From positions 16,648 to 80,647 of the forward strand of contig JAUYKI010000010.1 in NCBI GenBank assembly GCA_030700025.1: 64,000 nucleotides of DNA, written 5' to 3'. A program made the position numbers and the translations under genes. The notes beneath the pieces were generated by a model that searched no databases, had not been told where the DNA came from, and worked only from the letters and a program-made list of their open reading frames with translations. Positions 24,494 to 40,654 of the stretch are shown in pieces (within the stretch, counting starts at the first letter, position 1; the number at the start of each line of letters is the position of its first letter). The DNA comes from a bacterium. Its GTDB lineage: Bacteria; Patescibacteriota; Minisyncoccia; UBA6257; 02-FULL-45-10c.

Positions 24494-24539
24494 ATACTAT
24501 ATAGTAGCAATATAATCGGGCTGTAGTATACCGGTAGTA

Positions 24540-24647
24540 TCCCTCACCCTTTGTTATAACGGAGTGTCGTATAGTGGTAGTATACACGCTTCGGGTGTGT
24601 GTGGTCTGGGTTCGATTCCCAGCACTCCGACAAGAAAGGGTGAGGGA
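24540..24647 (+). repeat. family B paired inverted repeat F1 enclosing the inner tRNA
   Basis: TCCCTCACCCTTT (24540-24552) perfectly complementary to AAAGGGTGAGGGA (24635-24647). Confidence 0.65.
24560..24630 (+). tRNA. tRNA-Pro(CGG)-like (inner copy), no encoded CCA
   Basis: acceptor cggagtg/cactccg; anticodon arm cacgc-ttCGGgt-gtgtg; T arm ctggg-ttcgatt-cccag; D arm non-canonical (uaua/uaua), needs tRNAscan-SE. Confidence 0.55.
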
Positions 24648-24710
24648 CGCTTCGGGTGCGTGAGTACTGGGTTCGATTCCCAGCAGCCCGACCAAATTAA
24701 AATTAAATAT

Positions 24711-24782
24711 GCGCGCTTAGCTCAGTGGTAGAGCATCTCTTTTACACAGAGAGGGTCGGGGGTTCGATCCCCTCAGCGCGCA
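24711..24782 (+). tRNA. tRNA-Val(TAC), no encoded CCA
   Basis: acceptor gcgcgct/agcgcgc; D arm gctc-agtggta-gagc; anticodon arm tctct-ttTACac-agaga; T arm ggggg-ttcgatc-ccctc. Confidence 0.85.
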
Positions 24783-24910
24783 CAAAATATATAGCCGCAT
24801 TAGTGGCTATATTTATTATGAGGAGACGAACGGGAAGGGGGTTGACTAAATCACAAAAAAGAGTTACTATCTCTAAAGTTCCTGGCATTCAACTCGAGGA
24901 GGATCAAGCC

Positions 24911-25315
24911 ATGACCGACGAATATTTCGTGGGACAGCTTTGTCGGAAGATGGGTGAAACCGCGCCTTACGGAATTGAATGGGCCGAGCATCCGGAAGGC
25001 GGACTGATGGCAGAAATTAACGGGGTGTATTTAAGAATTGGGGGGGGCCAAGATTCGCCGATCTTTTTGGAAATTTCTTCGGGAATAAACACGCACATCA
25101 TTCGAGAGCCCAGATTGCCGCAAGCGCCAGCCAGAAAAGTTCTAAATTGGCTGGGCCGAAATTCCGAACAGGATGCGAATAAGCAAAAACTGCGGACTGA
25201 TTTAGAAACTCTGCTTAATCACGCTCTGAAACAATGCCTGAACCGCCGGCAAGATCCAGATCATCAAGAAAAAGTTAAGCAAATGCTCTTTGGACAAATT
25301 ATCGGAAAATTGTAA
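24911..25315 (+). CDS. hypothetical protein (134 aa)
   Basis: GAGGAGG RBS at 24895-24901, 9 nt before the ATG; the longer tracked ORF overlaps tRNA-Val and is rejected; terminator AATCCGCC-AACC-GGCGGATTTTTTTT follows. Confidence 0.5.
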   Translation: MTDEYFVGQLCRKMGETAPYGIEWAEHPEGGLMAEINGVYLRIGGGQDSPIFLEISSGINTHIIREPRLPQAPARKVLNWLGRNSEQDANKQKLRTDLETLLNHALKQCLNRRQDPDHQEKVKQMLFGQIIGKL

Positions 25316-25397
25316 AAAGAATTTAATCCGCCAACCGGCGGATTTTTTTTATATTTTAAAAACTGCCACAGACTTCCGCCCGTGATTTTAGTAAGAT

Positions 25398-25592
25398 ACT
25401 TTAGCATATAAAGCCGAGGTTATTTCTCTTGAAGGAACATCCCGCCACGCCCCGCCAAAGGCGAGGCTCCGCTTACAGCGGGGCCGGGGGCAGGCGTATT
25501 TTGCTTGGACCACAAAATACGCCGAGGGCGAAGAAAGTTTTATCGCTGGAATAAAACTATTCTGTTTCCGCAAAGAGATATAGCCGAGACCC
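25398..25592 (+). repeat. mosaic GC-rich structured element B
   Basis: 3' end TATTCTGTTTCCGCAAAGAGATATAGCCGAGACC is near-identical (2 mismatches) to the reverse complement of 18137-18170; the ends pair; abuts the rpsA promoter. Confidence 0.5.
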
Positions 25593-25621
25593 TTGACCCC
25601 TCTTTTTTTATTATCTATACT
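25593..25621 (+). promoter_or_regulatory. sigma70-like promoter of the S1 gene
   Basis: TTGACC - 17 nt - TATACT; ATG at 25629 only 8 nt after the -10 box, so the transcript is leaderless or nearly so. Confidence 0.45.
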
Positions 25622-25628
25622 ACTTCTC

Positions 25629-26717
25629 ATGACTATTGCTATCAAAAAGGAGTCAGCCATCGCCCAATTGCTTAAATCTTCGCCGGACTTGTTCGGCATT
25701 GTTAAAGAAGGGGATTTAGTGGATGCCAAATTGCTGAAAAGAATGCCGCGCGCGGTTTATTTTGATTTAGGAAAATTCGGCACCGGCGTAGTTTATGGCT
25801 TAGAACTTTTAAACGCCAAAGAAGTATTAAAAAATCTTAAAGAAGGCGATCCCATCTCCGCTAAAGTAGTGGAGGCGGAAAATGAAAACGGTTACGTGGA
25901 GCTTTCTTTGGTAGAAGCCGGAAAGCAAAAATCCTGGCAAACTGTCCGCGATTTGCGGGAAAGCGGAATGGAAACTTTGGTAAAAATAACCAATGTTAAT
26001 TCCGGAGGATTAATGGCCGAAATCGACGGCTTAAAAGCTTTCTTGCCGGTTTCCCAGCTTTCCAACGAACACTATCCCCGGGTAGATGACGGCAACCGGA
26101 CTAAAATTCTGGAAGAATTAAAAAAGTTTGTCGGCCAAGAACTAAACGTTAAAGTCATTGATGCTAATCCCCGCAATGACAAGCTGATTATTTCCGAAAA
26201 GGAAATTACCTCCCAAGACGTAAAAGAATATCTCGCCAAATATAAAGTCGGCGATGTTATTGACGGCATTATTTCCGGCGTAGCGGATTTCGGAGCTTTT
26301 ATGCGCTTTGCCGATAATCCGAAAATAGAGGGGTTAATCCACATATCCGAATTAAGCCACCGCTTAATTGAAAATCCGAAAGATATTATCAAAGTAGACG
26401 AATCCGTTAAGGCCAAAATCCTGGATATCAAAGACGGACGGGTAACCCTTTCCTTAAAAGCATTAAAAGAGGATCCGTGGCTGAAAGCCGAGGAAAGATA
26501 CCAAGCCAATCAGGAAGTTCCGGGAACTGTCCTCAAATTCAATCCCTTTGGCGCCTTTATCGGCTTGGACGCCGACATCCAGGGCCTGATCCACATCTCC
26601 GAATTCGGCAGCGCCGAAGAGATGTCCAAGCAATTAGCCATCGGAAAAACTTATACCTTTACCATTACCTCCGTTAAGCCTGCCGAAAAAAGAATTATCT
26701 TGAAATTGAAAAAATAG
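25629..26717 (+). CDS. rpsA: 30S ribosomal protein S1-like (four S1 domains)
   Basis: four repeats of the S1 OB-fold pattern (GDVIDGIISGVADFGAFMRF, GTVLKFNPFGAFIGL..); alternative TTG start at 25593. Confidence 0.75.
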   Translation: MTIAIKKESAIAQLLKSSPDLFGIVKEGDLVDAKLLKRMPRAVYFDLGKFGTGVVYGLELLNAKEVLKNLKEGDPISAKVVEAENENGYVELSLVEAGKQKSWQTVRDLRESGMETLVKITNVNSGGLMAEIDGLKAFLPVSQLSNEHYPRVDDGNRTKILEELKKFVGQELNVKVIDANPRNDKLIISEKEITSQDVKEYLAKYKVGDVIDGIISGVADFGAFMRFADNPKIEGLIHISELSHRLIENPKDIIKVDESVKAKILDIKDGRVTLSLKALKEDPWLKAEERYQANQEVPGTVLKFNPFGAFIGLDADIQGLIHISEFGSAEEMSKQLAIGKTYTFTITSVKPAEKRIILKLKK

Positions 26718-26748
26718 TTCTGATGCCTCATAATTAGGGGTAATAACT

Positions 26749-28584
26749 ATGCAGACTTTTTATAAAAGCATCCTTTGGGCTACTTTAGTTTTATTTTTGC
26801 TTTCGCTGGCTTTTTCTTTTCTTTTTGACACTCAAGCTAAGCCGGAAGTTCTTAGCCTTAACCAACTAACCGCCAGAATCAACTCCGGCGAGATAACTAA
26901 AATCACCGTTCAAGGCGATAATCTTAAAATTTCCCTGAAAGACGGAAAAGAAGCCGTTGCTCAAAAAGAAACAGAATCCGGTTTAAGCGAAACTCTGAAA
27001 AATTACGGCGTAAAAACTGACGCCCTGAATCAAGTGGCGATAGAAATCCAAGACGAATCCGGTTTTCAATTTTGGATGGGCATTCTTCTGCCGACGCTTC
27101 TGCCATTAATCGCCATGGTGGTTATTTTCTGGTTTATTTTCCGGCAGGCAAAAACCGGCGCTAACCAGGCTTTTACTTTCGGCCGTTCCAGTCTCCGGCT
27201 TTATGGTAATTTTAAAGACCGTCCAACCTTTAAAGACGTAGCCGGCCTGAAAGAAGCCAAACACGAATTGGAAGAGGTGGTGGATTTCCTGAAAAATCCA
27301 AAAAAGTTTTTGGACATGGGCGCCCGTATTCCGCGCGGAGTTTTATTGATGGGCTCGCCAGGCACCGGAAAAACTTTATTAGCAAGATCCGTAGCCGGTG
27401 AAAGCGGAGTTCCATTCTTTTTCATTTCCGCTTCAGAATTCGTAGAAATGTTCGTGGGTGTTGGCGCTTCCCGAACCCGCGATGCTTTTGCCACCGCCAA
27501 AAAAGCCGCTCCTTCTATCTTATTTATTGACGAGATTGACGCGATTGGCCGGGAACGCGGCGCCGGAGTGGGAGGCGGACACGACGAACGGGAACAAACC
27601 CTAAACCAAATCTTAGTGGAAATGGACGGCTTTGAACGGGACAATAATGTAATAGTTTTAGCCGCTACCAACCGGCCGGATATTTTGGACCGGGCTCTTT
27701 TGCGGCCAGGCCGTTTTGACCGCAGAGTTTGGCTGGACTTGCCGGACATCAACGACCGCGAGGCGATTTTAAAACTCCACGCGAAAGACAAACCATTAGC
27801 CAAAAATACCGATTTGCGGCAAATCGCGATCCGCACGCCTGGATTTTCCGGAGCGGATTTAGCCAACTTAATGAATGAATCGGCGATTTTAGCCGCCCAT
27901 CATAACCGAAAAGAAGTTATTCAAAATGATCTTTATGATTCCATTGAAAAAGTAATGCTCGGCCCCCAAAGAAAGGGGCGGGCTATCAGTCAAAAAGAAA
28001 AAGAAATTACCGCCTATCACGAAGCCGGCCACGCCTTGGTCGCTGCCAGCTTAAAAGACGCTGATCCGGTGCATAAAATTTCTATAATCAGCCGCGGCCG
28101 GGCCGGCGGTTACACTTTAAAATTGCCGTTGGAAGAACAACGGTTGCGGACTCGTTCCCAATTTTTAGCGGAAGTAGCAGTGGCCCTGGGCGGTTACGTG
28201 GCTGAGCAAGAAATTTTCGGGGAAATGAGCACCGGCGCATCCAGTGATTTACGCGAAGCTTCCAAAGTTACCCGGGCGCTAGTAACCCAATTCGGCATGA
28301 GCGAAGCTATCGGCCCGCAAACTTTCGGCGAATCGCACGATCTTATGTTTTTAGGAAAAGAAATTACCAGCGAACGGAATTATTCCGAAGCCACCGCGGA
28401 TAAAATTGACATAGAAGTAAAAAAATTCACTGAACGCTCTTATACGGCGGCAAAAAAAATAATTTCTTCCCGCCGGCAAATATTAAAAGCGGTTGCCCAA
28501 GCCCTGATAGAAAAAGAAGAATTGGAAAAAGAAGCTTTTGACAAAATTATCAGCAGTTTTAAACTAAAGCCGTTGTCGATTTAG
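26749..28584 (+). CDS. ftsH: ATP-dependent zinc metalloprotease FtsH
   Basis: 611 aa; N-terminal TM helices, AAA Walker A GSPGTGKT, HEAGHALVA zinc site. Confidence 0.9.
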   Translation: MQTFYKSILWATLVLFLLSLAFSFLFDTQAKPEVLSLNQLTARINSGEITKITVQGDNLKISLKDGKEAVAQKETESGLSETLKNYGVKTDALNQVAIEIQDESGFQFWMGILLPTLLPLIAMVVIFWFIFRQAKTGANQAFTFGRSSLRLYGNFKDRPTFKDVAGLKEAKHELEEVVDFLKNPKKFLDMGARIPRGVLLMGSPGTGKTLLARSVAGESGVPFFFISASEFVEMFVGVGASRTRDAFATAKKAAPSILFIDEIDAIGRERGAGVGGGHDEREQTLNQILVEMDGFERDNNVIVLAATNRPDILDRALLRPGRFDRRVWLDLPDINDREAILKLHAKDKPLAKNTDLRQIAIRTPGFSGADLANLMNESAILAAHHNRKEVIQNDLYDSIEKVMLGPQRKGRAISQKEKEITAYHEAGHALVAASLKDADPVHKISIISRGRAGGYTLKLPLEEQRLRTRSQFLAEVAVALGGYVAEQEIFGEMSTGASSDLREASKVTRALVTQFGMSEAIGPQTFGESHDLMFLGKEITSERNYSEATADKIDIEVKKFTERSYTAAKKIISSRRQILKAVAQALIEKEELEKEAFDKIISSFKLKPLSI

Positions 28585-28656
28585 GGCATATAGCTCAATG
28601 GTTAGAGTACCGAGCTTATACCTCGGCGGTTCTTGGTTCGAATCCAAGTATGCCCA
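28584..28656 (+). tRNA. tRNA-Ile(TAT) candidate, no encoded CCA
   Basis: acceptor gggcata/tatgccc; D arm gctc-aatggtta-gagt; anticodon arm ccgag-ctTATac-ctcgg (perfect); T arm cttgg-ttcgaat-ccaag; starts at the last base of the ftsH stop codon. Confidence 0.7.
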
Positions 28657-28682
28657 CCCTTAAAAAGAAAAAACACCAGCAG

Positions 28683-28712
28683 GGATTTTTATAAGAAAAA
28701 ACCCTGCTATAA
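28683..28712. terminator. bidirectional terminator
   Basis: AACCCTGCT-ATAA-AGCAGGGTT hairpin with A/T runs on both sides. Confidence 0.6.
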
Positions 28713-29438
28713 AGCAGGGTTGAAACGCTTGCAACTTTCAATAAAGGTCTGAATCTCATCCCGGTTGGGAAACTGGACGCCGCGCTCCAGCAGAACCTGG
28801 AAAGCCCTCGGCAAATAGAAGAACTTGTGCGAGTGGTACATGGTCGTCGCCCGCTCCACATCTTCCTTATTTTCCTCGGCTTCCTTGTCGCTCATCCGGA
28901 AATTTTCAGGGGAAACCCATTCGGTTTCCTTGATTTCCTGGCTTTCCCTTTTGAGCCGACCAGCCTCCACCTTCAGCGTACGGCAAACCACCAGTTTGTG
29001 CATCCGGTCGGGCGACGGAAACTCCGACACCACTTCCGGCCAAATCAGCAAACCAGTTTCTTCCAGCTCTTCCCGAATCGCGGTCAAAAGAATTTTTACG
29101 GTTTCGGAATTCGGATCCCAATCCTGAACCAGGCCAGGATTCAGCTTCCGCTCTCCCTCGTAATTTCCCGAAAACCACTTCCGGAAATCGAAGATTCTCT
29201 GAATCTTGGGGATGCCTTCGTCCAACACCTGGCCGACTTGCGCCCAGGTAATGTCCGAGCCCTTGCTCTGAAGCCGGGCGATCAAATTTTCCATATCCAT
29301 CAGCGCTTCTTCCAGAGTCTTCTCGCCGGAAACCGGCTTAGTCTCCATGTAACGCTCGTGAACCAGAAGCACCCGCCCCTCTTCGTCCATGGTCAAATTC
29401 TTGACCGTAATGCTCGGCTTGTTTGGAAATTCCATCCG
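28707..29438 (-). CDS. Nudix-family hydrolase
   Basis: Nudix box TAIREELEETGLLI (REx2EExG); likely start at MEFPNK (29438); the longer TTG-start ORF runs into element E3. Confidence 0.65.
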   Translation of the reverse strand, partial: RMEFPNKPSITVKNLTMDEEGRVLLVHERYMETKPVSGEKTLEEALMDMENLIARLQSKGSDITWAQVGQVLDEGIPKIQRIFDFRKWFSGNYEGERKLNPGLVQDWDPNSETVKILLTAIREELEETGLLIWPEVVSEFPSPDRMHKLVVCRTLKVEAGRLKRESQEIKETEWVSPENFRMSDKEAEENKEDVERATTMYHSHKFFYLPRAFQVLLERGVQFPNRDEIQTFIESCKRFNPAL

Positions 29439-29606
29439 GCCGCCGCTCAATCCCCAGCCCTCGCGCTTACTGGAAAGCTGTCTCACGGTTAAATCCTCCC
29501 TTGCCCGTCCGTAGTCTCGCGAAGCGAGACGTAGGCGGGTTTGAATTTTCAAGCTGGCTATTCCCAGCACTGGTGGCAGGATACCATAAAAATAAATCTT
29601 TGTCAA

Positions 29607-29678
29607 ACCCCGTTAGAAGCCGCCCTCGCTAAAGCGAGTGGCTACGGCCACCTAGGGGCGGTCTGCTTCTAACGGGGT
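29607..29678 (-). repeat. family A inverted-repeat element E3 (short, GC-rich interior)
   Basis: CCCCGTTAGAAGC...GCTTCTAACGGGG 13-bp terminal inverted repeats; nested hairpins inside. Confidence 0.55.
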
Positions 29679-29725
29679 CAAATTTACCCAATTCCCAAGG
29701 TGGAGTATCATGAGTATATAAACCC

Positions 29726-30745
29726 ATGCATAAAATCACATCTTTCATAATCGCTGAAACCGTCAAGGCCAAGCGAGGCAAGGAAGCGCCGGTCGCGGCG
29801 CCGGTTAAAAGCGCTCCGCATTATTTTGAGAAAACCGTTCCTTCCCAGTTTATTTTAAAACAAGAAACGGCGACTTTAGACAGCGCCTCCATTGAACTGG
29901 TAGCTAAAACTTATCCGCCGGATATTATTTTGGTGGAAGGCACCATTGAGGTGCCGGATGTTTTTGCCGAGGGAACTTTGGAATTGAAAGATAAACTGCT
30001 GGCGGCTTGCTATGAGTTCGCCAAAAAAAACGGCGCCAAAGAAGAACCGGCGGAAGAATATACCGTTTACCAAGTTTATGGCTACCCGGGCGACCCCGAA
30101 GCGATTCTGAAAGAAAGTGGAAAGAAAATGGCGGGTCTGCTGAAATCGGAAAAATTAGAGCTGGACGAAAATGAAGTAAAATATACGCTTTCTTTCCAGT
30201 TAAAATACGCTAAAGACGATTTGGCGATTGTGGATTGGGACGGCGCGTTTTTATTTGACCGGGAAGGGGAATTCGGAGAAACTATTGAATTATTGGAATT
30301 AGCGAACTTCCAGCTGCTCCGCTATCGGATTTTAGACCATGATTTAGACGACCGTTTGCAAAAAATTTCCAAGCTTACCCAGCAGGAAGGCAGCAGCCGG
30401 TGGTTCCGGACCAAAGAAGTGGCGCAAGCGTTCAAAGAAGTGATTAAAGTACGCTCCCAGTCTATTTCAGAATTTGAAGCGCTGGACCGGGACATTAAGC
30501 TAATCGGCGACTGGTATTCGGCCCGGCTTTATGAATTAATGTTTAAAAAATTCCGGATGGACGCCTGGTCTCTGACCATTAAAGAAAAACTGGAGTCTTT
30601 GGAAGACTCTTACGATATCGTGTCGGAGAACCTGGGAATGTCCCGGATGCAACTTTTGGAATTCATCCAAATCGGCGCTTTCTTTATTTTGCAAATCGGC
30701 TGGTTTGCCCTTATTATTCTTGAATTTTTCTATTTTACGCGATAA
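29726..30745 (+). CDS. hypothetical protein with C-terminal TM helix (339 aa)
   Basis: long ORF, consistent codon usage; no recognisable motif. Confidence 0.5.
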   Translation: MHKITSFIIAETVKAKRGKEAPVAAPVKSAPHYFEKTVPSQFILKQETATLDSASIELVAKTYPPDIILVEGTIEVPDVFAEGTLELKDKLLAACYEFAKKNGAKEEPAEEYTVYQVYGYPGDPEAILKESGKKMAGLLKSEKLELDENEVKYTLSFQLKYAKDDLAIVDWDGAFLFDREGEFGETIELLELANFQLLRYRILDHDLDDRLQKISKLTQQEGSSRWFRTKEVAQAFKEVIKVRSQSISEFEALDRDIKLIGDWYSARLYELMFKKFRMDAWSLTIKEKLESLEDSYDIVSENLGMSRMQLLEFIQIGAFFILQIGWFALIILEFFYFTR

Positions 30746-30823
30746 TCTGATTACGACTAAACCAATCGAAAATTAATTTTCGATTGGTCGCCCGATCAAA
30801 TTTATAATATAAATTTGATTTAG

Positions 30824-30857
30824 GGGCCTATGGTATAGTGGCAGAATGCGGCATTCG
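30824..30857 (+). pseudogene. diverged copy of the tRNA-Ala 5' half
   Basis: gggcctatggtatagtggcagaatgcggcattcg aligns with gggctcatagtaaagtggtattacgcagcattcg of the intact tRNA-Ala 300 bp downstream. Confidence 0.45.
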
Positions 30858-30858
30858 T

Positions 30859-31158
30859 CCCGATGTATAAATTTTGAAATGTTCTATACATATATTTTAA
30901 AATCATATAAAGAAGGTTCCTATTACATAGGTAGTTGTGAGAATGTAGACAAAAGATTACGATTACACAATCAAGGTTTTGTGACATCAACTAAACGATA
31001 TAAGCCATGGCAATTAGTATATAGTGAGAAGTTTGATAATTTAATTGGCGCGCGACGTCGAGAAGCTCAGATAAAATCGTTGAAGAAAAGAAGCGCGGTA
31101 GAAAAACTGATAAGAACATTTCAAAATTTATACATCGTGGATCCGCGATAACTTTGGT
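30859..31158 (+). mobile_element. AT-rich GIY-YIG cassette bounded by 24-bp perfect inverted repeats
   Basis: CGATGTATAAATTTTGAAATGTTC at 30861-30884 and its exact reverse complement at 31114-31137; sits between a tRNA-Ala 5'-half copy and the intact tRNA-Ala. Confidence 0.5.
30879..31151 (+). CDS. small GIY-YIG nuclease (YhbQ/UPF0213-like)
   Basis: YTYILKSYKEGSYYIGSCENVDKRLRLHNQG matches GIY-x10-YIG...R...H...N; about 30% GC; alternative start at 30846. Confidence 0.7.
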   Translation: MFYTYILKSYKEGSYYIGSCENVDKRLRLHNQGFVTSTKRYKPWQLVYSEKFDNLIGARRREAQIKSLKKRSAVEKLIRTFQNLYIVDPR

Positions 31159-31229
31159 GGGCTCATAGTAAAGTGGTATTACGCAGCATTCGCATTGCTG
31201 AGGCTCGGGTTCGATTCCCGATGGGTCCA
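31159..31229 (+). tRNA. tRNA-Ala(CGC), no encoded CCA
   Basis: acceptor gggctca/tgggtcc with G3:U70 identity pair; D arm gtaa-agtggta-ttac; anticodon arm cagca-ttCGCat-tgctg; T arm tcggg-ttcgatt-cccga. Confidence 0.8.
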
Positions 31230-31524
31230 CATGAGTCCACCAAAGTTATCGGGACATTGCCAAGGCGCGAGTTTCCCGACTTTCATTAAAGCTACCGAAA
31301 GAAGTCGAGGATCCTCGATGGCTTTGCCATCGGGACGATTCCGCCTAGGTCCACCACAAACGAATACGCCACCCGGGTGGCGTATTGAATTTGACAAATA
31401 ATTACTAAGGGTGTATTATATGAAATAATTCCTATCTGTATGGATAGGTCGCTCCGCAAGGGGTCAGGCGGTAAGAATCCTGCCGCAACTTAGGGTTCAC
31501 AGCACATTGAAAAGGAGGTGCCGT

Positions 31525-32019
31525 ATGGCACGCCCAAGCGAAGAGACAGAGTTTGTAATTCGACAAGGTCCCTCGAAGCTTGACCTGATACTTGCCCTGT
31601 TTGACACCGACATGGGTATAAGAACCGTGAGGTTCCAGGAGGCCAGTCCAGGGTCCGTAAAATACTATCAAGATTGGTTGGTTCAGATCGTTTCCGTAAG
31701 GAGACGGCATACTGCGACAACTTGGGAAATTGAAGGGATCGTGGAAACGAGCGGCGAAAGAGAGCGAGTTTCAATCTACTATTGTACTGCGACGCGCGAA
31801 GGTCGTATGAGGTTCGTGGAGAACCTCCAAATCAACGACAGCGTAGAAGCGTCAAATGACGCCAAGAGGGCATCAGCTCTCATGACCGTCATTGAAAGAA
31901 TGGTGTCCAGCCATAGCTCGGAGATTCACTGCCGGTTTTTCCAACTTTTCGAAAAAGCGAAGCTCATCTCTCGCGCCAAAGATTCCATTTCCCTTGCCGA
32001 AGCGATTAGGGACATCTGA
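31525..32019 (+). CDS. hypothetical protein (164 aa)
   Basis: AAAGGAGG RBS 8 nt upstream; GC-rich structured leader at 31430-31510. Confidence 0.5.
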   Translation: MARPSEETEFVIRQGPSKLDLILALFDTDMGIRTVRFQEASPGSVKYYQDWLVQIVSVRRRHTATTWEIEGIVETSGERERVSIYYCTATREGRMRFVENLQINDSVEASNDAKRASALMTVIERMVSSHSSEIHCRFFQLFEKAKLISRAKDSISLAEAIRDI

Positions 32020-32142
32020 AACAACAAACTTTAACTCAAGCCCCGCGTGGAAAAAATTCTGCGTGGGGCTCTCATTTTTATATTCACATAAACTGCCCTA
32101 AAGCAGTTTTTTATTTTACCGAAAATATTCTAAAATAAACTC

Positions 32143-32712: not shown

Positions 32713-32732
32713 CTTAATTCCCGCCTATCTTA

Positions 32733-33296: not shown

Positions 33297-33332
33297 TTGT
33301 TATAACTAAAAACTGCCCCCAAGGGGCAGTTT

Positions 33333-34274
33333 TTACTTTTCAATCTTTTCGCTCAGTTGCCGGAAGGACCCTTTGCCATAAGTTTTTTCTACCAGCCGGG
33401 CTATTGGCAAAAGCCGGCCGGTTAAAACTGCTTTCGCGAATAAATCAAAAACTTCTTCCTCCGATTGAAAATCAGGCTGATTTTTTTCATACAATTCCGC
33501 GATTAATTTTTGTAAGTGCCGCCTCTCTTCCGGATAACTATAAAAATGCAGAACCGCTTTTGCTTGTCCGCCTTGTTCAGCAAAAGAAATAAAAGCCACA
33601 TCGCCAATCGAACGGATTAAGTCAATTTTTTCCACTTCATTTACTTCTCCCAAGTCTTTTTGGAGAACCGGCAAGTTTTTAAGCGTTTCTCGGCAAAACC
33701 GCCTGGTCAGCTCTTCCACAATCGCTTCATCCGCGTCTTTAAAATGCGCTTCTTTTTTATCACCGGTTTTATAAAGCTTAAATCCTTCCCGCCGCGGACG
33801 CACAAACTTCGGCCGGCCTTCTTTTGTGGTCGCTTCTACCGATTGGAAAGAATTCAAATGCAGTAATTCATGGACTAATCCTTTGGCAAAAGCCAAATTA
33901 GGCTTAGTCTTCGCGGCATTAAACCAAATGCTCTGCAAAGCGGCATAATAATGCCCGCCGACATTTTCTCCGAAATATTGTTCCGGCAAAATATGGACTT
34001 TGTCTTCGGAAATAACCAGCGGCTGTCCGCCATAGCGCTCCAAAAATTTCGGCAGTTCTTGATTAATAAAATCAATAACCATTCTCTGCTCCAGCGTTTT
34101 TTCCAGCTCTCCTTCTTTTTGTTCCTGTTCTTGATCAAAAAGAAATCCGCCCAATGCCAGAGCTTCCTGTTCCTTATCTTCTTCCAAGCCTACTATCCGG
34201 ACCAATCCGGATTTTCTGTCCCACTTAATTTCCGGGCTGGCTTCGGGCGGTTGTCTTTTAGGAAACTTTTCCAT
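33333..34274 (-). CDS. hypothetical HExxH-motif protein (313 aa)
   Basis: GLVHELLHL motif; ATG embedded in the family B inverted repeat (GGGTGAGGG-ATG). Confidence 0.5.
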   Translation of the reverse strand: MEKFPKRQPPEASPEIKWDRKSGLVRIVGLEEDKEQEALALGGFLFDQEQEQKEGELEKTLEQRMVIDFINQELPKFLERYGGQPLVISEDKVHILPEQYFGENVGGHYYAALQSIWFNAAKTKPNLAFAKGLVHELLHLNSFQSVEATTKEGRPKFVRPRREGFKLYKTGDKKEAHFKDADEAIVEELTRRFCRETLKNLPVLQKDLGEVNEVEKIDLIRSIGDVAFISFAEQGGQAKAVLHFYSYPEERRHLQKLIAELYEKNQPDFQSEEEVFDLFAKAVLTGRLLPIARLVEKTYGKGSFRQLSEKIEK

Positions 34275-34404
34275 CCCTCACCCTTGAAGGGCCTAACGCG
34301 TTTCCGCGTTTTTGTTTCAAGATTAATTTAAGATTAAGCTCAATCGACATTTTAAATAATAAACTAATTATGGGCAATCTCACAGCCCTTCCAAGGTGAG
34401 GGAT
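34273..34404. repeat. family B paired inverted repeat F2
   Basis: ATCCCTCACCCTTG...CAAGGTGAGGGAT flank 105 bp of AT-rich sequence; abuts the xerC stop. Confidence 0.6.
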
Positions 34405-35300: not shown

Positions 35301-35341
35301 TTTATTATAACCTGTCGCACAATATTTTTTAACCACGCAAA

Positions 35342-35478
35342 ATCCCTCACTTTTGAAGCACCGAAACGTCCAGGCGATTTCCTTAGAGGACACTAATCAT
35401 TTACAAGTAGGGTCTGGAGTTAGAAAACAACGTAGTAAGACAAACGCTTAAAAATCGCAGCGCTTCAAGAGTGAGGGA
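35342..35478. repeat. family B paired inverted repeat F3
   Basis: ATCCCTCACTTTTGAAGC...GCTTCAAGAGTGAGGGA, 17-bp arms. Confidence 0.6.
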
Positions 35479-35493
35479 CAAATAAAAAACCAC

Positions 35494-35811
35494 CTAAAAG
35501 GTGGCTACTACTCTTACCTGGCTTTCAACCAAGTCATAAATTTCTTTCACTTCTGGACTTCCATCAAGGCCCCGATGGGTCATTGATCGATCCTTATCAA
35601 CATAGGAAAATCCGAAACAGCTGATACTTCCGACAAAAATACTAAGAGTGAAGTAGGTGCCGGCATCCGGTCCCACGAACCGAATCGCCCGATTCAAAAC
35701 AAAATGCTGAAGGCCGTTATCCGCGAAATACTGGTCCGGGCCTACTTTCTGCCATTTCAATTTCTTGGTCCGCGTTAACTGAATCGCCGAGTTCAGTAGC
35801 CGTGTGTGCAC
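35494..35811 (-). CDS. hypothetical protein (105 aa, GTG start)
   Basis: AAGGAGG 10 nt upstream of the GTG; terminator CCACCTTTTAGGTGG downstream. Confidence 0.4.
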   Translation of the reverse strand: MHTRLLNSAIQLTRTKKLKWQKVGPDQYFADNGLQHFVLNRAIRFVGPDAGTYFTLSIFVGSISCFGFSYVDKDRSMTHRGLDGSPEVKEIYDLVESQVRVVATF

Positions 35812-35873
35812 GTTGCTGGTTTCCTCCTTGGTTTTTAGATTCTAAATCCGATTTGGTTCGTATCCTGCCCTCC

Positions 35874-36119
35874 CTAGGAACTTAGATAATACGCCAAACT
35901 TGAACACTTGTCAACTGAATTAATTTTTCTAATCCCGTGATGTTTATAAGCATAGCTTCCGAAAAGCCATAAAAGCCTCAAACTGCACAAAGCGCTGGGG
36001 ATAAAAAACCACCAGGATTTAAAAAATACTCCGGTAATCGCGAAAAAAGTGGTCCATCCCAGCCAAAAAAGCATTAACCGGCCGATGCCAACCGATTCAT
36101 TCCGTTCTTCTTGAGTCAT
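35874..36119 (-). CDS. small membrane protein (81 aa)
   Basis: GGAGGA RBS; two Trp-rich hydrophobic helices. Confidence 0.4.
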   Translation of the reverse strand: MTQEERNESVGIGRLMLFWLGWTTFFAITGVFFKSWWFFIPSALCSLRLLWLFGSYAYKHHGIRKINSVDKCSSLAYYLSS

Positions 36120-36227
36120 TTCGCTCCTCCGCTACTGTCAAAAAGCTATAAATTATATATCACGGATAAAGCCCCAAAACAAGAACCCTGCTTGTAATTT
36201 TTTTTAAATTAGACTATAATAGATACC

Positions 36228-36494
36228 ATGTTAACTAAAAGGCAAAAACTCAATATCGTAAAAGAACACGGCCGGCACGAAACCGATACCGGCTCAACCG
36301 AATCCCAAGTCGGACTTTTGACCAAGCGAATTGAGGAATTAACTGCTCACCTGAAAAAACACCGCAAGGATAATCTGTCCCGGCGCGGGCTTTTACAAAT
36401 GGTCGGAAAAAGAAAAAAATTATTGGACTACCTTTCTAAAAAACAGCCGAAGGCTTACAGCGCGGTTATTAAAAAGTTAGGATTAAAAAAATAA
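36228..36494 (+). CDS. rpsO: 30S ribosomal protein S15
   Basis: 88 aa; HRKDNLSRRGLLQMVGKRKKLLDYL conserved S15 region. Confidence 0.9.
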   Translation: MLTKRQKLNIVKEHGRHETDTGSTESQVGLLTKRIEELTAHLKKHRKDNLSRRGLLQMVGKRKKLLDYLSKKQPKAYSAVIKKLGLKK

Positions 36495-36503
36495 CAAAGC
36501 TGA

Positions 36504-36610
36504 AATACTAATATACTAATTCATACTAATATTCGTATGTGCCTATTCGTTAAGGCATTCGCATACTATTATTCGCATGCATTCGTATATTGGCATTACA
36601 GAATAGCTAA
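36504..36610. repeat. PR-family intergenic repeat R2
   Basis: near-identical to 11009-11116 over about 100 bp, including the 36-bp core and TCGTATATTGGCATTAC. Confidence 0.7.
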
Positions 36611-36613
36611 TTA

Positions 36614-37117
36614 ATGAAACGAAAGGATCAGCGGGTGGGAATCTTTATTGATATCCAGAATCTTTACCACTCCGCCAAAAATTTATACCATTCCCGAGTT
36701 AACTACAAAGAACTTCTGAAAGAACTGGTAGACGGACGGCCGCTTATTAACGCCATGGCCTACGTTGTAAAGTCTGAAGCTACTGCGGAAGCGGCTTTTT
36801 TTGACGCCTTGAAAAAAAGCGGATTGGAATTACGCAGTAAAGAACTTCAAATTTTTCCAGGGGGGATGAAAAAAGCCGATTGGGACGTCGGCATGGCGGT
36901 AGACGCCATCCGAATGTCCGATCCGCTGGACGTCGTAATCTTAGTAACTGGCGACGGAGACTTTATTCCATTAGTAGAATTTTTAAAATGGGGCAAAGGA
37001 CGGACGGTAGAGGTGGCAGCTTTCAGTCGGAGCGCTTCGGCCAAGTTAAAAGAAGCGGCGGATGAATTTATTGATATAGACAAATTGCCGAGAGTTTTAT
37101 TAAGAATTAGAGAATAA
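36614..37117 (+). CDS. NYN-domain (LabA-like) protein
   Basis: VGIFIDIQN..DVVILVTGDGDF pattern of NYN/PIN-like ribonuclease domain; lies between rpsO and pnp. Confidence 0.75.
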   Translation: MKRKDQRVGIFIDIQNLYHSAKNLYHSRVNYKELLKELVDGRPLINAMAYVVKSEATAEAAFFDALKKSGLELRSKELQIFPGGMKKADWDVGMAVDAIRMSDPLDVVILVTGDGDFIPLVEFLKWGKGRTVEVAAFSRSASAKLKEAADEFIDIDKLPRVLLRIRE

Positions 37118-37185
37118 CCCTTCGGCAAGCTCAGGACAAGCTCCTTCAACAGACTCAAAATAATAATAAAAATATAAAAAATAAA

Positions 37186-39234
37186 ATGGACTTACAACGA
37201 AAACAATTTAAAACAGAATTTAACGGAAAACCATTAACTTTGGAGGTTTCCCAATTAGCCGGACAAGCCAATGCCGCGGTAATGGGAACTTACGGCGACA
37301 CCACAGTTTTAGTAACCGCGGTCATGAGCAAAAAGGACAAACCTGGGGATTATTTCCCATTAATGGTCAATTACGAAGAAAAGCACTATGCCGTTGGCAA
37401 AATTTTAGGCAGCCGCTTTATGAAACGCGAAAGCCGGCCTTCGGACGAAGCAGTTTTAACCGGCCGTTTAATCGACCGGACTATCCGTCCGCTTTTTGAT
37501 CAAAGAACCCGCCGGGAAGTCCAGGTGGTAATAACCGTGCTTTCTTACGACGGAGAAAATGATCCGGATTTTATCGGACTTTTAACTTCTTCGGTCGCGC
37601 TGGCCACTTCTTCTATTCCCTGGAACGGCCCGGTAGCCGGAGTACGAATTACCAACGGCGACCAATTAAATACTTTTGTAGCCGGCACCGCCGATAAAAT
37701 CAACATGGTGGAATTTGAAGGCAATGAAGTCGCGGAAAGCGAAGCCGTCCAAGCCTTTACCCAAGCCCAGGTCCAGATTAAAGAATTAGTTTCCTGGCAG
37801 AAAAAAATTATTTCGGAAATTGGAAAGCCGAAATCCGAAATTAAACTCAATGAGCCAAAAGCGGAACTGCTGGCAGCTGCTAAAGATTTCTTAAAAGGAA
37901 GATTGGAAAAAGCGGTTTATAATCCGAGCAAAGCAGCGATGTATGAAAACTTAGATTCGCTTAAAGAAGAATTGAAAACCGCGCTCACGGAAAAAGAATT
38001 TTCCGAAGGCGACATTTCCGCGGTAGACGCTATTTTAGAAGAAGAAGTAAACCAATTAGTACACGAAAAGATATTAAAAGAGGAAAAGCGGCCGGATGGG
38101 CGGAAATTAAACCAGTTGCGCGAATTACACGCCGAAGCCGGAATCTTAAAACGACTTCACGGCTCCGCTTTATTCGTCCGGGGCAACACCCAATCTTTGG
38201 CTGTAACTACTTTAGGCGCTCCCGGAGACCAACAGCTTCTGGAAACCATGGAATTTTCCGGAAAGAAAAGATTCATGCTTCATTATAATTTTCCGCCATT
38301 TTCCACCGGAGAAGTGGGCAGAATGGGCGCTCCGGGCCGGAGAGAAATCGGCCACGGCGCTCTAGCGGAAAAAGCTTTGCGCCCGCTTATTCCGACTCAA
38401 GAAGAATTCCCTTATACCATCCGGGTAGTTTCCGAAATTCTCTCCTCTAATGGATCTTCTTCTATGGCTTCAGTTTGCGCCGGCAGTTTATCTCTGATGG
38501 ATGCCGGAGTGCCGATCCGCCGGCCAGCCGCCGGAATCGCCATGGGATTAATTCTGGATGAATCGGGAAAACAATTTAAGGTTCTCACCGACATCCAAGG
38601 GCCGGAAGACCACCACGGCGATATGGATTTCAAAGCTGCCGGAACGGAAAACGGAGTTACCGCAATCCAAATGGACGTAAAAGTTAACGGCGTTACCGTG
38701 GAAATTTTGGAAAAAACTTTGATACAGGCCAAAGAAGCCCGGCTCCAGATTTTAAAAACTATTACCGGAGCGCTTCCGGCGCCGCGCGCGGAACTTTCTC
38801 CGTTCGCGCCCCGGATTATCACTTGGAAAATTAATCCGGAAAAAATCGGCGAACTCATCGGCCCCGGCGGAAAAAATATCAACGGCATTATTGATGAAAC
38901 CGGCGTAACCGCGATTGATATTGAAGATGACGGCTTGGTGCTGATTACTTCTGTTGATGCCGCGGCCGCGGAAAAAGCTTTAGCCCGCGTTAAAGCTAGC
39001 ACTAAAGAATTCCAAATCGGGGATATTGTTGAAGGCAACATTGTAAAAATTCTGGAATTCGGCGCTATCGTGGAATTTGACGGCCGCGACGGCATGATCC
39101 ACGTTTCCGAACTTAAGGAAGGATTTGTTAAAAAAGTTGAGGACGTGGTTAAGCTGGGAGATTTTGTCCGGGCAAAAATCGTGAAAATGGATAACGGAAA
39201 AATCGGGCTTTCAATAAAACAACTCAACAAATAA
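37186..39234 (+). CDS. pnp: polynucleotide phosphorylase
   Basis: 682 aa; two RNase PH domains, KH (GPGGKNINGI) and S1 (GDIVEGNIVKILEFGA) domains. Confidence 0.9.
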   Translation: MDLQRKQFKTEFNGKPLTLEVSQLAGQANAAVMGTYGDTTVLVTAVMSKKDKPGDYFPLMVNYEEKHYAVGKILGSRFMKRESRPSDEAVLTGRLIDRTIRPLFDQRTRREVQVVITVLSYDGENDPDFIGLLTSSVALATSSIPWNGPVAGVRITNGDQLNTFVAGTADKINMVEFEGNEVAESEAVQAFTQAQVQIKELVSWQKKIISEIGKPKSEIKLNEPKAELLAAAKDFLKGRLEKAVYNPSKAAMYENLDSLKEELKTALTEKEFSEGDISAVDAILEEEVNQLVHEKILKEEKRPDGRKLNQLRELHAEAGILKRLHGSALFVRGNTQSLAVTTLGAPGDQQLLETMEFSGKKRFMLHYNFPPFSTGEVGRMGAPGRREIGHGALAEKALRPLIPTQEEFPYTIRVVSEILSSNGSSSMASVCAGSLSLMDAGVPIRRPAAGIAMGLILDESGKQFKVLTDIQGPEDHHGDMDFKAAGTENGVTAIQMDVKVNGVTVEILEKTLIQAKEARLQILKTITGALPAPRAELSPFAPRIITWKINPEKIGELIGPGGKNINGIIDETGVTAIDIEDDGLVLITSVDAAAAEKALARVKASTKEFQIGDIVEGNIVKILEFGAIVEFDGRDGMIHVSELKEGFVKKVEDVVKLGDFVRAKIVKMDNGKIGLSIKQLNK

Positions 39235-39367
39235 TCCCTCACCCTTGCGAAAGCTAACCCCGCCTTAAGGCGGGGTTTTTGCTTCAACAAAAAATAATTG
39301 CGCTAAAAATTACGATTTCTAATTAAATTATGGATTATATAATAATACTTTCGCAAAGGTGAGGGAT
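39234..39367. repeat. family B paired inverted repeat F4 (contains the pnp terminator)
   Basis: ATCCCTCACCCTTGCGAAAG...CTTTCGCAAAGGTGAGGGAT; interior holds AACCCCGCC-TTAA-GGCGGGGTTTTT. Confidence 0.6.
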
Positions 39368-40648: not shown

Positions 40649-40654
40649 ACTAAG

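Follow-up and report, generated by a model that had tools for sequence, protein, structure and literature searches.

An apparently undescribed family of putative short insertion elements with a GIY-YIG-encoding form in Patescibacteria

The Correia elements of Neisseria and the ERIC/IRU sequences of enterobacteria are MITEs that are co-transcribed with genes, and the reduced genome of Rickettsia harbours short palindromic repeats, the Rickettsia palindromic elements (RPEs). The seg genes of T4-like phages are free-standing GIY-YIG homing endonuclease genes, with SegB located in a tRNA region. To our knowledge, movement of DNA between non-homologous sites has never been demonstrated for a GIY-YIG domain alone, and we know of no member of the UPF0213/Slx1 family that has been linked to a mobile element. 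The Slx1 family takes in YhbQ and YazA (PMC7017083). Insertions in rRNA genes of CPR bacteria that encode GIY-YIG proteins and resemble neither group I nor group II introns were described by Tsurumaki et al. 2024 (PMC11270868).

Here, we observe four convergent pairs TCCCTCAC…GTGAGGGA with a length of 108-136 bp in the window, i.e., the whole analysed stretch of 64,000 nucleotides. They are best explained as copies, mostly old or degenerate, of a short insertion-element family (family B) that is apparently undescribed. In all four, the left copy of the repeat lies on the plus strand and the right copy on the minus strand. Their core coordinates agree with those of the preliminary description to within one base:

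24540..24647, plus strand: element copy 1, 108 bp, arms TCCCTCACCCTTTGTT and AAGAAAGGGTGAGGGA
34274..34403, minus strand: element copy 2, 130 bp, in the typical position
35343..35478, strand unassigned: element copy 3, 136 bp, in contact with neither a stop nor a start codon
39235..39366, plus strand: element copy 4, 132 bp, left arm immediately after the pnp TAA

As had been supposed, the pairs are not a product of chance: with up to two mismatches, the 13-mer arm matches eight times in the window compared to 0.76 expected, and none of 100 shuffles reached eight. The heptamer CCCTCAC occurs ten times, and eight of these occurrences are arms of the pairs. Complementarity extends past the 13-mer in pair 4 (28 nt, 86%), pair 1 (26 nt, 81%) and pair 2 (20 nt, 90%), and in the predicted folds of all four pairs the arms form the closing stem (z-scores -4.7 to -7.5). 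No alignment was obtained between the interiors of the four copies, and thus the term "unrelated interiors" is fair for this window. Common to all four is a layout in which an AT-rich stretch precedes a GC-rich hairpin that adjoins the right arm. The view that the arms act as hairpin-forming termini of a repeated unit, probably mobile and of variable content, is upheld.

The cargo of copy 1 is a complete tRNA-Pro(CGG) gene (24560-24631), and the copy sits in an older gene of the same kind:

24517..24539, plus strand: 5' fragment of the older tRNA-Pro(CGG), acceptor and D arm, read from the sequence, cut by copy 1
24648..24694, plus strand: 3' fragment of the older tRNA-Pro(CGG), anticodon loop to CCA, split off by copy 1

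Approximately 4 nt of the old gene are absent at the junction of the 3' fragment. With copy 1 deleted, ARAGORN calls a tRNA-Pro(CGG) in region 24517-24694. The gene is also split in the same region in L001, L090 and L097, and relative L204 has lost the outer 3' fragment and the right arm and retained the inner tRNA. Copy 2, in minus-strand reading, forms the junction xerC-TAA/TCCCTCACC…GGGTGAGGG/ATG of a 313-aa gene; it hence contacts the xerC stop codon in addition to the ATG already noticed, and holds, antisense to the flanking genes, a terminator-like hairpin. Copy 3 lies between the terminator of the upstream 105-aa gene (35488-35506) and a promoter-like site and the ATG of xerC, 45 nt upstream of the latter. 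The pnp terminator (39256-39277) is enclosed by copy 4, as the tRNA is by copy 1, both in line with the preliminary description; the right arm of copy 4 lies 46 nt upstream of the next ATG (39413).

In public genomes, paired arms were found at 112 or more loci, nearly all of them in Patescibacteria, with lineages of this group named in about 93 record titles among the loci listed; by our own estimate under uniform composition, about one such paired pattern is expected by chance. The 13-mer is hence paired, and present at other loci too. Genomes often carry many loci, several of them 8-11, and no paired arms were matched in viral contigs. The element is common in ultra-small CPR/Patescibacteria, with Paceibacteria-type CPR bacteria as the host group. 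Among the loci listed, the left arm abuts a stop codon and the right arm an ATG, read in the same orientation, in 62 of 134 pairs; most of these lie between ORFs of 100-880 codons. In these pairs, the last A of the right arm is the first base of the next gene's ATG; a typical right arm supplies AAGGGTGA, a TGA stop, GGG, and then this A.

The arms are 19-bp inverted terminal repeats, 5'-TCCCTCACCCTT+N7 … N7'+AAGGGTGAGGGA-3', in which the outer 12 bp vary little or not at all and the inner 7 bp covary. In the stem alignment, 96.8% of the cells are paired, and both sides vary in 11 of the 19 pairs; not one of 500 shuffles attained any of the five measures, and RNAalifold recovers the same 19-bp stem. 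Mismatches of the G·U and the A·C type number 12 each, and thus give no sign of selection on pairing at the RNA level.

In its full-length form of approximately 290 bp, the element consists of the 19-bp arms around the gene of an 85-88-aa GIY-YIG nuclease and no other gene, and appears to be the autonomous member of the family:

L026:7066-7357 and L048:5353-5640: full-length elements, GIY-YIG ORF between the arms, 3' end …GGG TGA GGG ATG
L197, L201, L203 and L073: further full-length elements, GIY-YIG ORF between the arms, same 3' end

The start codon follows the left arm, which lies upstream of it in every B-type homologue with flanks among the fetched loci, and the last codons and the TGA stop are located in the right arm (…GGG-TGA-GGG-ATG). 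Nuclease homologues form 107 clusters with 53-96% identity; Y5, Y16, R26, H30 and E50 are conserved in 95% or more of 91 sequences. The protein is a GIY-YIG nuclease of the UPF0213/Slx1 type; among solved structures, those of UPF0213 proteins and SLX1 (PDB 1zg2, 1ywl, 7cq2) come closest to it in sequence. A homologue with 44% identity lies in the window and is flanked by a different repeat of 21-25 bp, also starting with TCCC. Related elements in the window are:

30857..31141, plus strand: related full-length element, 285 bp, different arms of about 28 bp (TCCCGATGTATAAATTTTGAAATGTTCT…)
31142..31254, plus strand: related tRNA-carrying element, 113 bp, arms of about 24 bp (TCCGCGATAACTTTGG…), tRNA-Ala(CGC) inside
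2939..3060, plus strand: copy of family A, arms TCCCGTTAGAG…CTCTAACGGGA, flanks ATGTA/…/TGGA
12939..13058, minus strand: copy of family A, direct repeat ATGGAA/…/TGGAA at the flanks
61246..61362, plus strand: copy of family A, flanks ATGGA/…/TGGA
48198..48320, plus strand: third arm type TCCCACACATAACAAAGAC…GTCTTTGTTATGGGTGGGA, TCAA direct repeats at the flanks

The 285-bp element carries a 90-aa GIY-YIG ORF at 30879-31151 (Pfam GIY-YIG, E = 1.2e-13) and is directly abutted by the tRNA-Ala element, around which fragments resemble a broken tRNA-Ala. The copy at 48198..48320 is inserted seven codons into a UvrD/PcrA-like gene, with a new ATG within its right arm. The contrast that had been drawn between families A and B does not appear to hold: the TCCC…GGGA termini, the size and the layout of family A are those of the B elements, and it looks like a sister family of the same kind. 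Its right arm has no Shine-Dalgarno-like sequence; in the copy at 2939..3060, the A of an ATG comes from this arm.

Short elements of 107-137 bp keep the arms, between which lies either a whole tRNA gene or an AT-rich stretch that carries a small in-frame ORF, together with a GC hairpin. The small ORFs in the frame of the arm's TGA have a mean length of 18 aa vs 2.5 and 1.1 aa in the other frames. One short copy (L088) corresponds to the GIY-YIG ORF with an internal stretch deleted (hmmsearch E = 2e-6; blastn E = 1e-6). It is the only one demonstrably derived from the nuclease gene, and the nuclease may therefore be just another cargo of the arms. At least 12 tRNA genes (Pro, Ala, Val, Ser) are enclosed by arms and sited in broken tRNA genes, whose anticodon equals that of the cargo wherever it is readable; the interrupted genes miss 4-5 nt which the arms are unable to supply. 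These copies have the same arms, though translation is irrelevant there. The statement that the elements are no classical MITEs applies in part: the coding partner is a tiny GIY-YIG nuclease and no known transposase, and most copies have no target-site duplication; the short copies, however, behave as MITEs do by definition, namely as non-autonomous forms related to a longer coding element that shares their ends.

The elements are multi-copy, patchy, and present or absent between close relatives. Comparison with relatives, as had been proposed, finds pair 2 missing in L114 (88% amino acid identity) and L117, and pair 3 missing in L114. At the site of pair 2 these relatives have spacers of 26 nt (L114) and 20 nt (L117), so that the element replaces a spacer of 20-26 nt and is not simply added; we know of no transposition chemistry that accounts for such an exchange. 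Interiors at different loci of one genome are up to 99-100% identical, compared to a between-genome median of 0.59; gene conversion instead of new insertions could be the source of these near-identical copies. Flanking direct repeats of 4-5 bp accompany 15 of 118 copies vs 2.3% in the control, and direct repeats also border the family A and UvrD-gene copies of the window.

Implementing these facts, we consider it probable that this is a selfish, GIY-YIG-encoding insertion-element family with non-autonomous derivatives, for which we infer both the insertion mechanism and the coupling role of the stem. The nuclease, a relative of structure-selective nucleases, would act on the paired arms, be it as hairpin or cruciform DNA or as repeat ends, and thereby move or copy the element, while the short forms would be mobilised in trans. 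In the mRNA, pairing of the arms would bring the upstream stop beside the downstream start. A ribosome at the upstream stop, or one that has read the internal ORF as far as the TGA, three bases ahead of the ATG, would melt the stem and expose the Shine-Dalgarno-like AAGGGTGA; translational coupling across the insertion would thus be kept, and insertions could for this reason survive inside essential operons. Forms with a tRNA would destroy the resident tRNA gene and substitute their own copy.

Several features of the arms would suit a host-owned intercistronic RNA stem-loop for translational coupling, RNase III processing or mRNA stabilisation, in whose loop the nuclease gene, small ORFs and tRNAs are merely tolerated: the exact stop/start position in co-orientation with the flanking genes, the location of AAGGGTGA, TGA and the A of the ATG all in the right arm, the frame open up to this TGA, and the covariation of the inner 7 bp, expected of a stem under selection. 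Such a host device is nevertheless unlikely, given the patchy occurrence with absence from orthologous junctions of close relatives, the 99-100% identical copies at unrelated loci, the 4-5-bp direct repeats around a subset, the missing bias of G·U over A·C, and the copies within tRNA genes and a coding region, where the function is inapplicable. Removal of the elements from RNA as intervening sequences, restoring overlapping stop/start junctions and intact tRNAs, is very improbable. The stem does juxtapose the flanks, and CPR rRNA genes carry non-intron insertions, some encoding GIY-YIG proteins (PMC11270868); precise excision, however, gives TAA+TG without a start codon, the interrupted tRNA genes lack nucleotides that the arms cannot supply, the outer fragment in L204 has decayed while the inner tRNA was kept, and the elements have no Rfam intron matches.

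The preliminary description associated the pairs, as possible recombination sites, with the adjacent tyrosine recombinase; they would then be its substrates, or else invertons switching promoters or terminators. The only recombinase gene in the window is indeed bracketed by two pairs, and inversion would bring the opposite-strand hairpin of pair 2 into play. Its product, however, is an ordinary single Xer-type recombinase, with about equal scores on the XerC and XerD models and a score above the XerA-type cut-off. No pairs occur around 80 loci encoding xerC relatives (44-81% identity, 578,565 bp), a Xer-like gene lies within the fetched 8 kb at only 1 of 112 element loci among the matches listed, and in the 88%-identity relative the gene order around xerC is unchanged, without an element at either flank. 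Against invertons, the interior follows the orientation of the flanking genes in almost every typical copy (frame-0 gene-strand ORFs in about 45 of 70), and a second sample (L113) is identical to the window, including the orientation. This highly improbable explanation is already largely refuted, and the recombinase next to the pairs is most likely a coincidence. An origin from known hairpin-using transposons of the IS200/IS605 or REP/RAYT type deserves just as little credence: these share hairpin-forming ends and short, non-coding, multi-copy forms, mostly without duplications, but have a subterminal hairpin at each end instead of a single long-range terminal stem, REPs are only 20-40 nt long, and the sole gene found between our arms is GIY-YIG, never a Y1 HUH transposase. 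Hardly any weight falls on integron-like attC sites between gene cassettes. The size of 107-137 bp, the imperfect dyad symmetry and the conserved ends with a variable middle recall Vibrio VCR/attC arrays, as do runs of elements with single genes between them (L067, four in 2.7 kb). The ends, though, are TCCCTCACCC/GGGTGAGGGA instead of RYYYAAC/GTTRRRY, so that the defining core sites are lacking and an attC identity was rejected; moreover, the intervening genes are core genes (e.g., pnp, xerC, znuA/znuC, rplJ), the interior is no continuous palindrome in itself, and the recombinase scores 126.7 on the integron-integrase model with its cut-off of 265.

The putative insertion elements resemble Correia and ERIC/IRU elements in their 100-150 bp, their multiple copies, terminal inverted repeats that pair in the transcript, and transcribed intergenic sites with presence varying between strains. 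They differ in that their partner with shared ends codes for a GIY-YIG nuclease instead of a DDE transposase, that the ends fall exactly on stop and start codons, and that most copies come without duplications and some carry a whole tRNA gene. With the seg genes they share small GIY-YIG genes wedged between conserved genes, sporadic occurrence and, in one case, an association with tRNA genes. Seg proteins, however, exceed 200 aa and have a DNA-binding domain, whereas here the catalytic domain of 85-88 aa stands alone and is closest to UPF0213/Slx1; seg genes have neither terminal inverted repeats nor short derivatives and spread only between homologous loci. By sequence, Slx1/YhbQ/YazA (UPF0213) is the closest family to our nuclease, and a preference for branched or hairpin DNA would fit an element with stem-forming ends, although Slx1 depends on Slx4 and contains a zinc-finger domain, which our protein lacks. 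The CPR rRNA-gene insertions concern the same host group and protein family and also lie in genes of structured RNAs; inverted terminal arms, intercistronic copies, or short and tRNA-carrying derivatives are not reported for them (PMC11270868). Like RPEs, the present elements occupy sites where insertion would normally be lethal and may be tolerated through preserved expression. RPEs insert in frame within ORFs and are translated, whereas the elements described here lie between ORFs or replace tRNA genes and, unlike RPEs, have a coding partner.

The 13-mer TCCCTCACCCTTG, with up to two mismatches allowed, matches the window eight times as compared with 0.76 matches expected, a count reached in none of 100 shuffles. 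The matches form four pairs, and in each of them the left copy lies on the plus strand and the right copy on the minus strand. This bears out the preliminary description, which had reported such inverted-repeat pairs, one enclosing a tRNA gene, another enclosing the pnp terminator, and one copy abutting the ATG of the gene next to the tyrosine recombinase gene xerC. We read the pairs as short copies of one element.

Inverted-repeat pairs of family B in the window
24540-24647: pair 1, encloses tRNA-Pro(CGG)
34274-34403: pair 2, minus-strand arrangement, one side adjoins the xerC stop codon and the other side the ATG of the next gene
35343-35478: pair 3, contact with neither a stop codon nor an ATG
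39235-39366: pair 4, encloses the pnp terminator, contact on the stop side only

Eight of the ten CCCTCAC heptamers in the window are pair arms. Arm complementarity extends beyond the 13-mer in a pair-specific manner (pair 4, 86% over 28 nt; pair 1, 81% over 26 nt; pair 2, 90% over 20 nt), and the arms form the closing helix in the fold of each window element, with z-scores from -4.7 to -7.5. An alignment of seven window copies did not yield a convincing conserved interior block. The surrounding sequence is gene-dense and of the Patescibacteria type, with pnp, ftsH, S1, an NYN-domain gene and the Xer recombinase, and its closest protein matches come from MAGs of Harrisonbacteria and other Patescibacteria. 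In this otherwise dense genome, approximately 1 kb (40649-41660) is devoid of ORFs of at least 80 aa and carries several long imperfect inverted repeats (41029-41135, 41145-41314, 41624-41697); no Rfam match at E <= 0.1 was found there. The best Rfam tRNA match of the window (73.9 bits) is a tRNA-Ile with anticodon TAT (UAU) at 28584-28658, called by ARAGORN; this anticodon is uncommon in bacteria.

The preliminary description had suggested a census of the motif. One genome per species was scanned with the pattern TCCCTCACYYTT-N(83-113)-AARRGTGAGGGA. The pattern itself restricts the length of short elements to 107-137 bp. At least 112 loci were obtained, against about one chance match as estimated under uniform base composition. 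Among the matches listed, Patescibacteria lineages are named in about 93 record titles (Jorgensen-, Harrison-, Lipton-, Brenner-, Wolfe-, Buchanan- and Berkelbacteria, Paceibacterota, Minisyncoccia and MAGs labelled 'Saccharibacteria'), three more loci lie on an 805-kb chromosome, and several genomes hold 8-11 loci each. A search of viral contigs for the paired-arm pattern returned no matches, and a phage origin of the elements was therefore rejected.

The position of the elements relative to genes is striking. In 62 of 134 pairs (the loci listed plus the window), a stop codon stands directly before TCCC and an ATG starts with the last A of the right arm; both codons have the same orientation, and most of these pairs have ORFs of 100-880 codons on either side. 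Contact with the ATG only was observed in 29 pairs and with the stop codon only in 11. The typical layout is a stop codon, TCCCTCACCCTT-N7 … N7'-AAGGGTGAGGG and the ATG, and pair 2 of the window matches it exactly on the minus strand. The same layout with full 19-bp arms also occurs on short contigs binned to non-CPR organisms, namely in a Nanoarchaeota MAG (L050; L-numbers denote comparison loci fetched from public genomes) and in 'Gammaproteobacteria' MAGs (L036, L074, L082). These are either mis-binned CPR contigs or cases of transfer, possibly including transfer to DPANN archaea. In Bacteroides/Bacteroidaceae (L007:5430-5733, L061:1400-1704, L106:4661-4878, L016:12-187), several GTGAGGGAT / ATCCCTCAC motifs are clustered within about 300 bp, but they lack the 19-bp arm extension and are not placed between stop and start codons. 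They look like another kind of repeat, with the core motif in common by chance.

For the stem analysis, 24 nt were taken from either end of 52 distinct copies. The helix formed by the arms is 19 bp long, and 96.8% of its cells are paired. Its outer 12 bp are invariant or nearly so; variation is found at positions 13-17 and 19, where substitutions occur in both arms, as in the pair counts of position 13 (CG 20, GC 12, AU 9, UA 6). None of five stem measures was reached in 500 shuffles, and sliding the partner destroyed the signal. RNAalifold on full-length short copies returned the same 19-bp stem and nothing else that was consistent. Since G·U and A·C mismatches are equally frequent (12 each), the counts do not discriminate between pairing at the RNA and at the DNA level. 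An 'empty' version of 36 nt, in which the arms are joined by a TTCG loop (TCCCTCACCTTTTTCC-TTCG-GGAAAAAGGTGAGGGA), was seen at L015:1068-1103, with a second right-arm half about 40 nt downstream.

Wider-spaced arms in the fetched loci delimit elements of 287-294 bp that enclose an ORF of 85-88 aa, and such full-length cassettes (about 290 bp, identical arms) were found at six or more loci. The ORF is a GIY-YIG catalytic domain (Pfam PF01541, E = 2.7e-14). Its start codon lies 0-5 nt after the left arm, and its last codons and stop are the right arm itself (… GAA GGG TGA GGG ATG, the final ATG being the start of the next gene). Close relatives of the nuclease fall into 107 clusters at 53-96% identity. 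In the three relatives that could be read, the nuclease gene is flanked by the same arms and lies between co-directional genes: between znuA and an ABC ATPase gene in L201, inside a type IV secretion operon in L203, and directly before rplJ in L197. A fourth, without DNA, is located between frr and an M50 peptidase gene. Among the fetched loci, every B-type homologue with available flanks has the left arm upstream of its start codon. The window carries a GIY-YIG ORF of 90 aa (30879-31151) that is 44% identical to the B-type nuclease and is flanked by a different repeat of 21-25 bp, likewise beginning with TCCC.

In an alignment of 91 nuclease sequences, each of the residues Y5, Y16, R26, H30 and E50 is shared by at least 95%. 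The nearest solved structures by sequence are two UPF0213 proteins, followed by SLX1; the Slx1 family has been described as including YhbQ and YazA (PMC7017083). The protein scores 21.5 with the group I intron endonuclease model, below the cut-off of 56, and consists of the catalytic domain only (85-88 aa), a separate DNA-binding domain for a long target being absent. The presence of copies at many non-homologous loci points to more than homing alone. Nested or tandem copies occur in L048 (5353-5772), where a short copy directly follows the TGA in the right arm of a full-length copy, in L073 (3592-4010), where a short copy separates the left arm from the nuclease ATG, and in L037. Elements thus integrate within other elements or beside them.

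One explanation considered for the short copies was that all of them had arisen from the nuclease gene by internal deletion. Searches with a profile and with blastn-short support such an origin only in L088, where MIMFFVYILKSKLDSSFYKG is joined to HLKYSLMFQG (hmmsearch E = 2e-6, blastn E = 1e-6); in the other short-copy interiors the same searches detected no similarity to the nuclease gene, and the general explanation was dropped. Most short copies consist of an AT-rich stretch followed by a GC-rich hairpin adjoining the right arm. Approximately 45 of 70 contain a small ORF (22-33 codons) that shares its reading frame with the TGA in the arm, and the mean length of the small ORF is 18 aa in this frame compared with 2.5 and 1.1 aa in the other two.

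At least 12 copies carry complete tRNA genes inside their arms (four Pro-CGG, one Ala-TGC, two Ala-CGC, three Val and two Ser). Wherever the flanks of such copies are readable, they are the halves of a tRNA gene with the same anticodon, and 4-5 nt have been lost where the halves meet. The copies concerned are pair 1 of the window, L001, L090 and L097 for Pro, L072 and L010 for Ala, and L092 for Val. In L204, a relative with 84% protein identity, the inner tRNA-Pro is intact, the left arm is degenerate, and the right arm and the outer 3' fragment are gone. The tRNA-Pro insertion is therefore older than the split between the window and L204. Judged by this pattern, the inner tRNA-Pro gene is presumably the working one and the outer pieces are decaying. 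Excision at the RNA level, which would restore the outer tRNA, was rejected, as flanks joined by hand leave 4-5 nt missing; ARAGORN does not discriminate here, in that it tolerates a short D arm and reports a tRNA-Pro for many ways of joining the flanks of the window copy. A more complicated arrangement is present in the window at 30826-31345. A 5' tRNA-Ala-like piece (acceptor and D arm up to TTCG) is followed by a GIY-YIG element of 285 bp, a directly adjoining element of 113 bp with a tRNA-Ala(CGC), additional short TCCCGA…TCGGGA repeats and a 3' piece that terminates in TAGGTCCACCA. None of 20,160 combinations removing up to three inserts rebuilt the outer tRNA-Ala.

Comparison with relatives, another check that had been suggested, revealed absence of the element at corresponding junctions. 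L114, whose flanking protein is 88% identical and whose DNA is about 87% identical, keeps the gene order S15 – 105-aa gene – xerC – 313-aa gene and has no arm motif at all at this locus. Between xerC and the next gene, L114 has a spacer of 26 nt and L117 (81% xerC identity) an unrelated spacer of 20 nt; in the window, a 130-bp element reaching from stop codon to ATG replaces this 20-26-nt spacer. Pair 3 is likewise absent from L114.

There is also evidence for copying within genomes. Interiors at different loci of one genome reach 99-100% identity (L085/L086, L037/L073 and two L058 copies), compared with a median of 0.59 and a 95th percentile of 0.64 between genomes. L085 and L086 both have exact TAA/…/ATG junctions, and since their interiors are nearly identical, this exactness is not only a matter of slow trimming. 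Gene conversion overwriting older copies may produce the same combination of near-identical interiors and exact junctions. In L067 (2257-4951), four gene junctions in a row, all within 2.7 kb of a single operon, each hold a copy, with interior identity of up to about 90% in the pairs compared. Most copies are without a target-site duplication; flanking direct repeats of at least 4 bp were found in 15 of 118 copies, compared with 2.3% in a shuffled-partner control, and in a subset they include the start codon (ATGAA/…/TGAA, ATGGA/…/TGGA, ATGGG/…/TGGG). Targets in tRNA genes lose 4-5 nt, and at a subset of the other copies 4-5 nt are duplicated. We speculate that a staggered cut, filled in or trimmed, would fit both.

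Two further arm types were observed in the window. Copies of 117-122 bp with arms TCCCGTTAGAGGCA…TGCCTCTAACGGGA lie at 2939-3060, 12939-13058 and 61246-61362, and this second arm family is probably the 'family A' of the preliminary description. Each copy is followed by TGG, so that the last A of the arm completes an ATG. The bases in front of a copy are ATGGA, ATGGAA or ATGTA, as if the start-codon region had been duplicated over 4-5 bp; the direct-repeat pattern (ATGGA/…/TGGA) is present in all three. On the left side, a tiny orphan ORF ends at the TAG (ATG GAA TCC CGT TAG) or at a downstream TAA in the left arm. A third arm type, flanked by TCAA direct repeats, is located at 48198-48320 and interrupts a UvrD/PcrA-like helicase gene after seven codons. 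It separates the old start (ATGAGCCGTCCGAAACTCAA…) from the rest of the gene, and the ORF continues in frame from the new ATG of the right arm (GTTATGGGTGGGATCAATCC).

The anatomy is thus that of a multi-copy, patchy unit, polymorphic for gain and loss, with conserved inverted ends. Its coding member has a single gene, for a small and well-conserved GIY-YIG nuclease, and this gene overlaps the right end. The content of the derivatives is different, and the placement keeps the upstream stop and creates the downstream start. With moderate confidence, we take the nuclease to be a mobility function that would recognise the paired ends, because it is constantly associated with inverted ends in two divergent subfamilies, because it is kin to structure-selective nucleases, and because the arms are retained unchanged in tRNA-carrying copies, for which translation plays no part. 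A similar, moderate degree of confidence applies to the suggestion that stem and relay ORF preserve translational coupling of the two flanking genes. By the time it has reached the upstream stop, a ribosome would have melted the left arm and thereby freed AAGGGTGA 6 nt before the ATG, and the relay ORF would end at the TGA three bases before this ATG. As a tentative proposal, which we regard as somewhat doubtful in its entirety, the elements would form an unrecognised minimal class of mobile elements: a cassette of about 290 bp with a lone Slx1/UPF0213-type nuclease that would cut the base of its own stem, landing between stop and start, keeping the coupling by stem and relay ORF, and with derivatives that replace the tRNA they knock out. 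If true, this would be the first biological role for the widespread and uncharacterised UPF0213 (YhbQ/YazA) family.

The finding is real and more interesting than had been proposed, for a different reason. CPR genomes are tiny and tightly packed, and almost any insertion should be harmful; the element nonetheless sits inside core operons (pnp, znuA/znuC, rplJ, type IV secretion genes) and tRNA genes. If our reading is right, a selfish element becomes nearly invisible to its host by rebuilding the stop, ribosome-binding site and start that it displaces or, by another route, by carrying a spare tRNA, and the small UPF0213/Slx1-like nuclease family, whose role has been unassigned so far, would be tied to DNA mobility. 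For annotation, gene callers are expected to mis-set start codons and to miss broken and nested tRNA genes around the elements, and the 19-bp arms are a convenient marker for them in metagenomes.

The preliminary description had considered the association with the recombinase suggestive, two copies bracketing xerC. This link was rejected in both directions: no pair was found at 80 loci encoding xerC relatives (578,565 bp), and a Xer-like gene is present in only 1 of the 112 element loci among the matches listed. The bracketing is best read as a coincidence in which two neighbouring junctions each happen to carry an element. The xerC product scores about equally with the XerC and XerD models, below their cut-offs, passes the XerA-type model and stays far below the integron-integrase (126.7, cut-off 265) and invertase models; an exact-protein look-up returned no record. 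An inverton was rejected as well, given that the interiors are oriented like the genes on either side, that the orientation is unchanged in a second sample and that there is no association with a recombinase. The similarity to known ends that had been proposed as a check did not hold either. The core sites of integron attC, RYYYAAC … GTTRRRY, are not matched by the arms, and the IntI score is that of the recombinase just mentioned. REP/BIME and IS200/IS605 elements have palindromes of 20-40 nt or a subterminal hairpin at each end and a Y1 HUH transposase (RAYT/TnpA); the present elements have a single long-range stem enclosing 70-250 nt, and the only enclosed gene in the loci fetched is GIY-YIG. 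An Rfam search of the whole window at gathering thresholds gave tRNA matches only, and relaxed searches gave tRNAs and weak sub-threshold matches at 24300-31700 and nothing at 40600-46300.

Mobile ends had been favoured over a classical MITE, which is correct only in part. Most copies are without a duplication; on the other hand, 19-bp terminal inverted repeats, a length of 107-137 bp (limited by the scan), 8-11 loci in several genomes and a longer coding partner with the same arms are features of MITEs, the gene of that partner being GIY-YIG and no recognised transposase. How the short copies work resembles the co-transcribed Correia/ERIC MITEs, and the long copy resembles the T4 seg genes, which are free-standing GIY-YIG homing endonuclease genes. 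Membership in either class, MITE or homing endonuclease gene, does not fit, because there is no recognised transposase, mostly no duplication, no DNA-binding domain, and many non-homologous sites. The family is apparently widespread and undescribed: in the literature, of which our coverage is incomplete, we found neither the arms nor the stop/start placement described, and likewise no account of the short or the tRNA-carrying forms. The nearest published observation found is that of insertions in CPR rRNA genes, which encode GIY-YIG proteins and resemble neither group I nor group II introns (PMC11270868).
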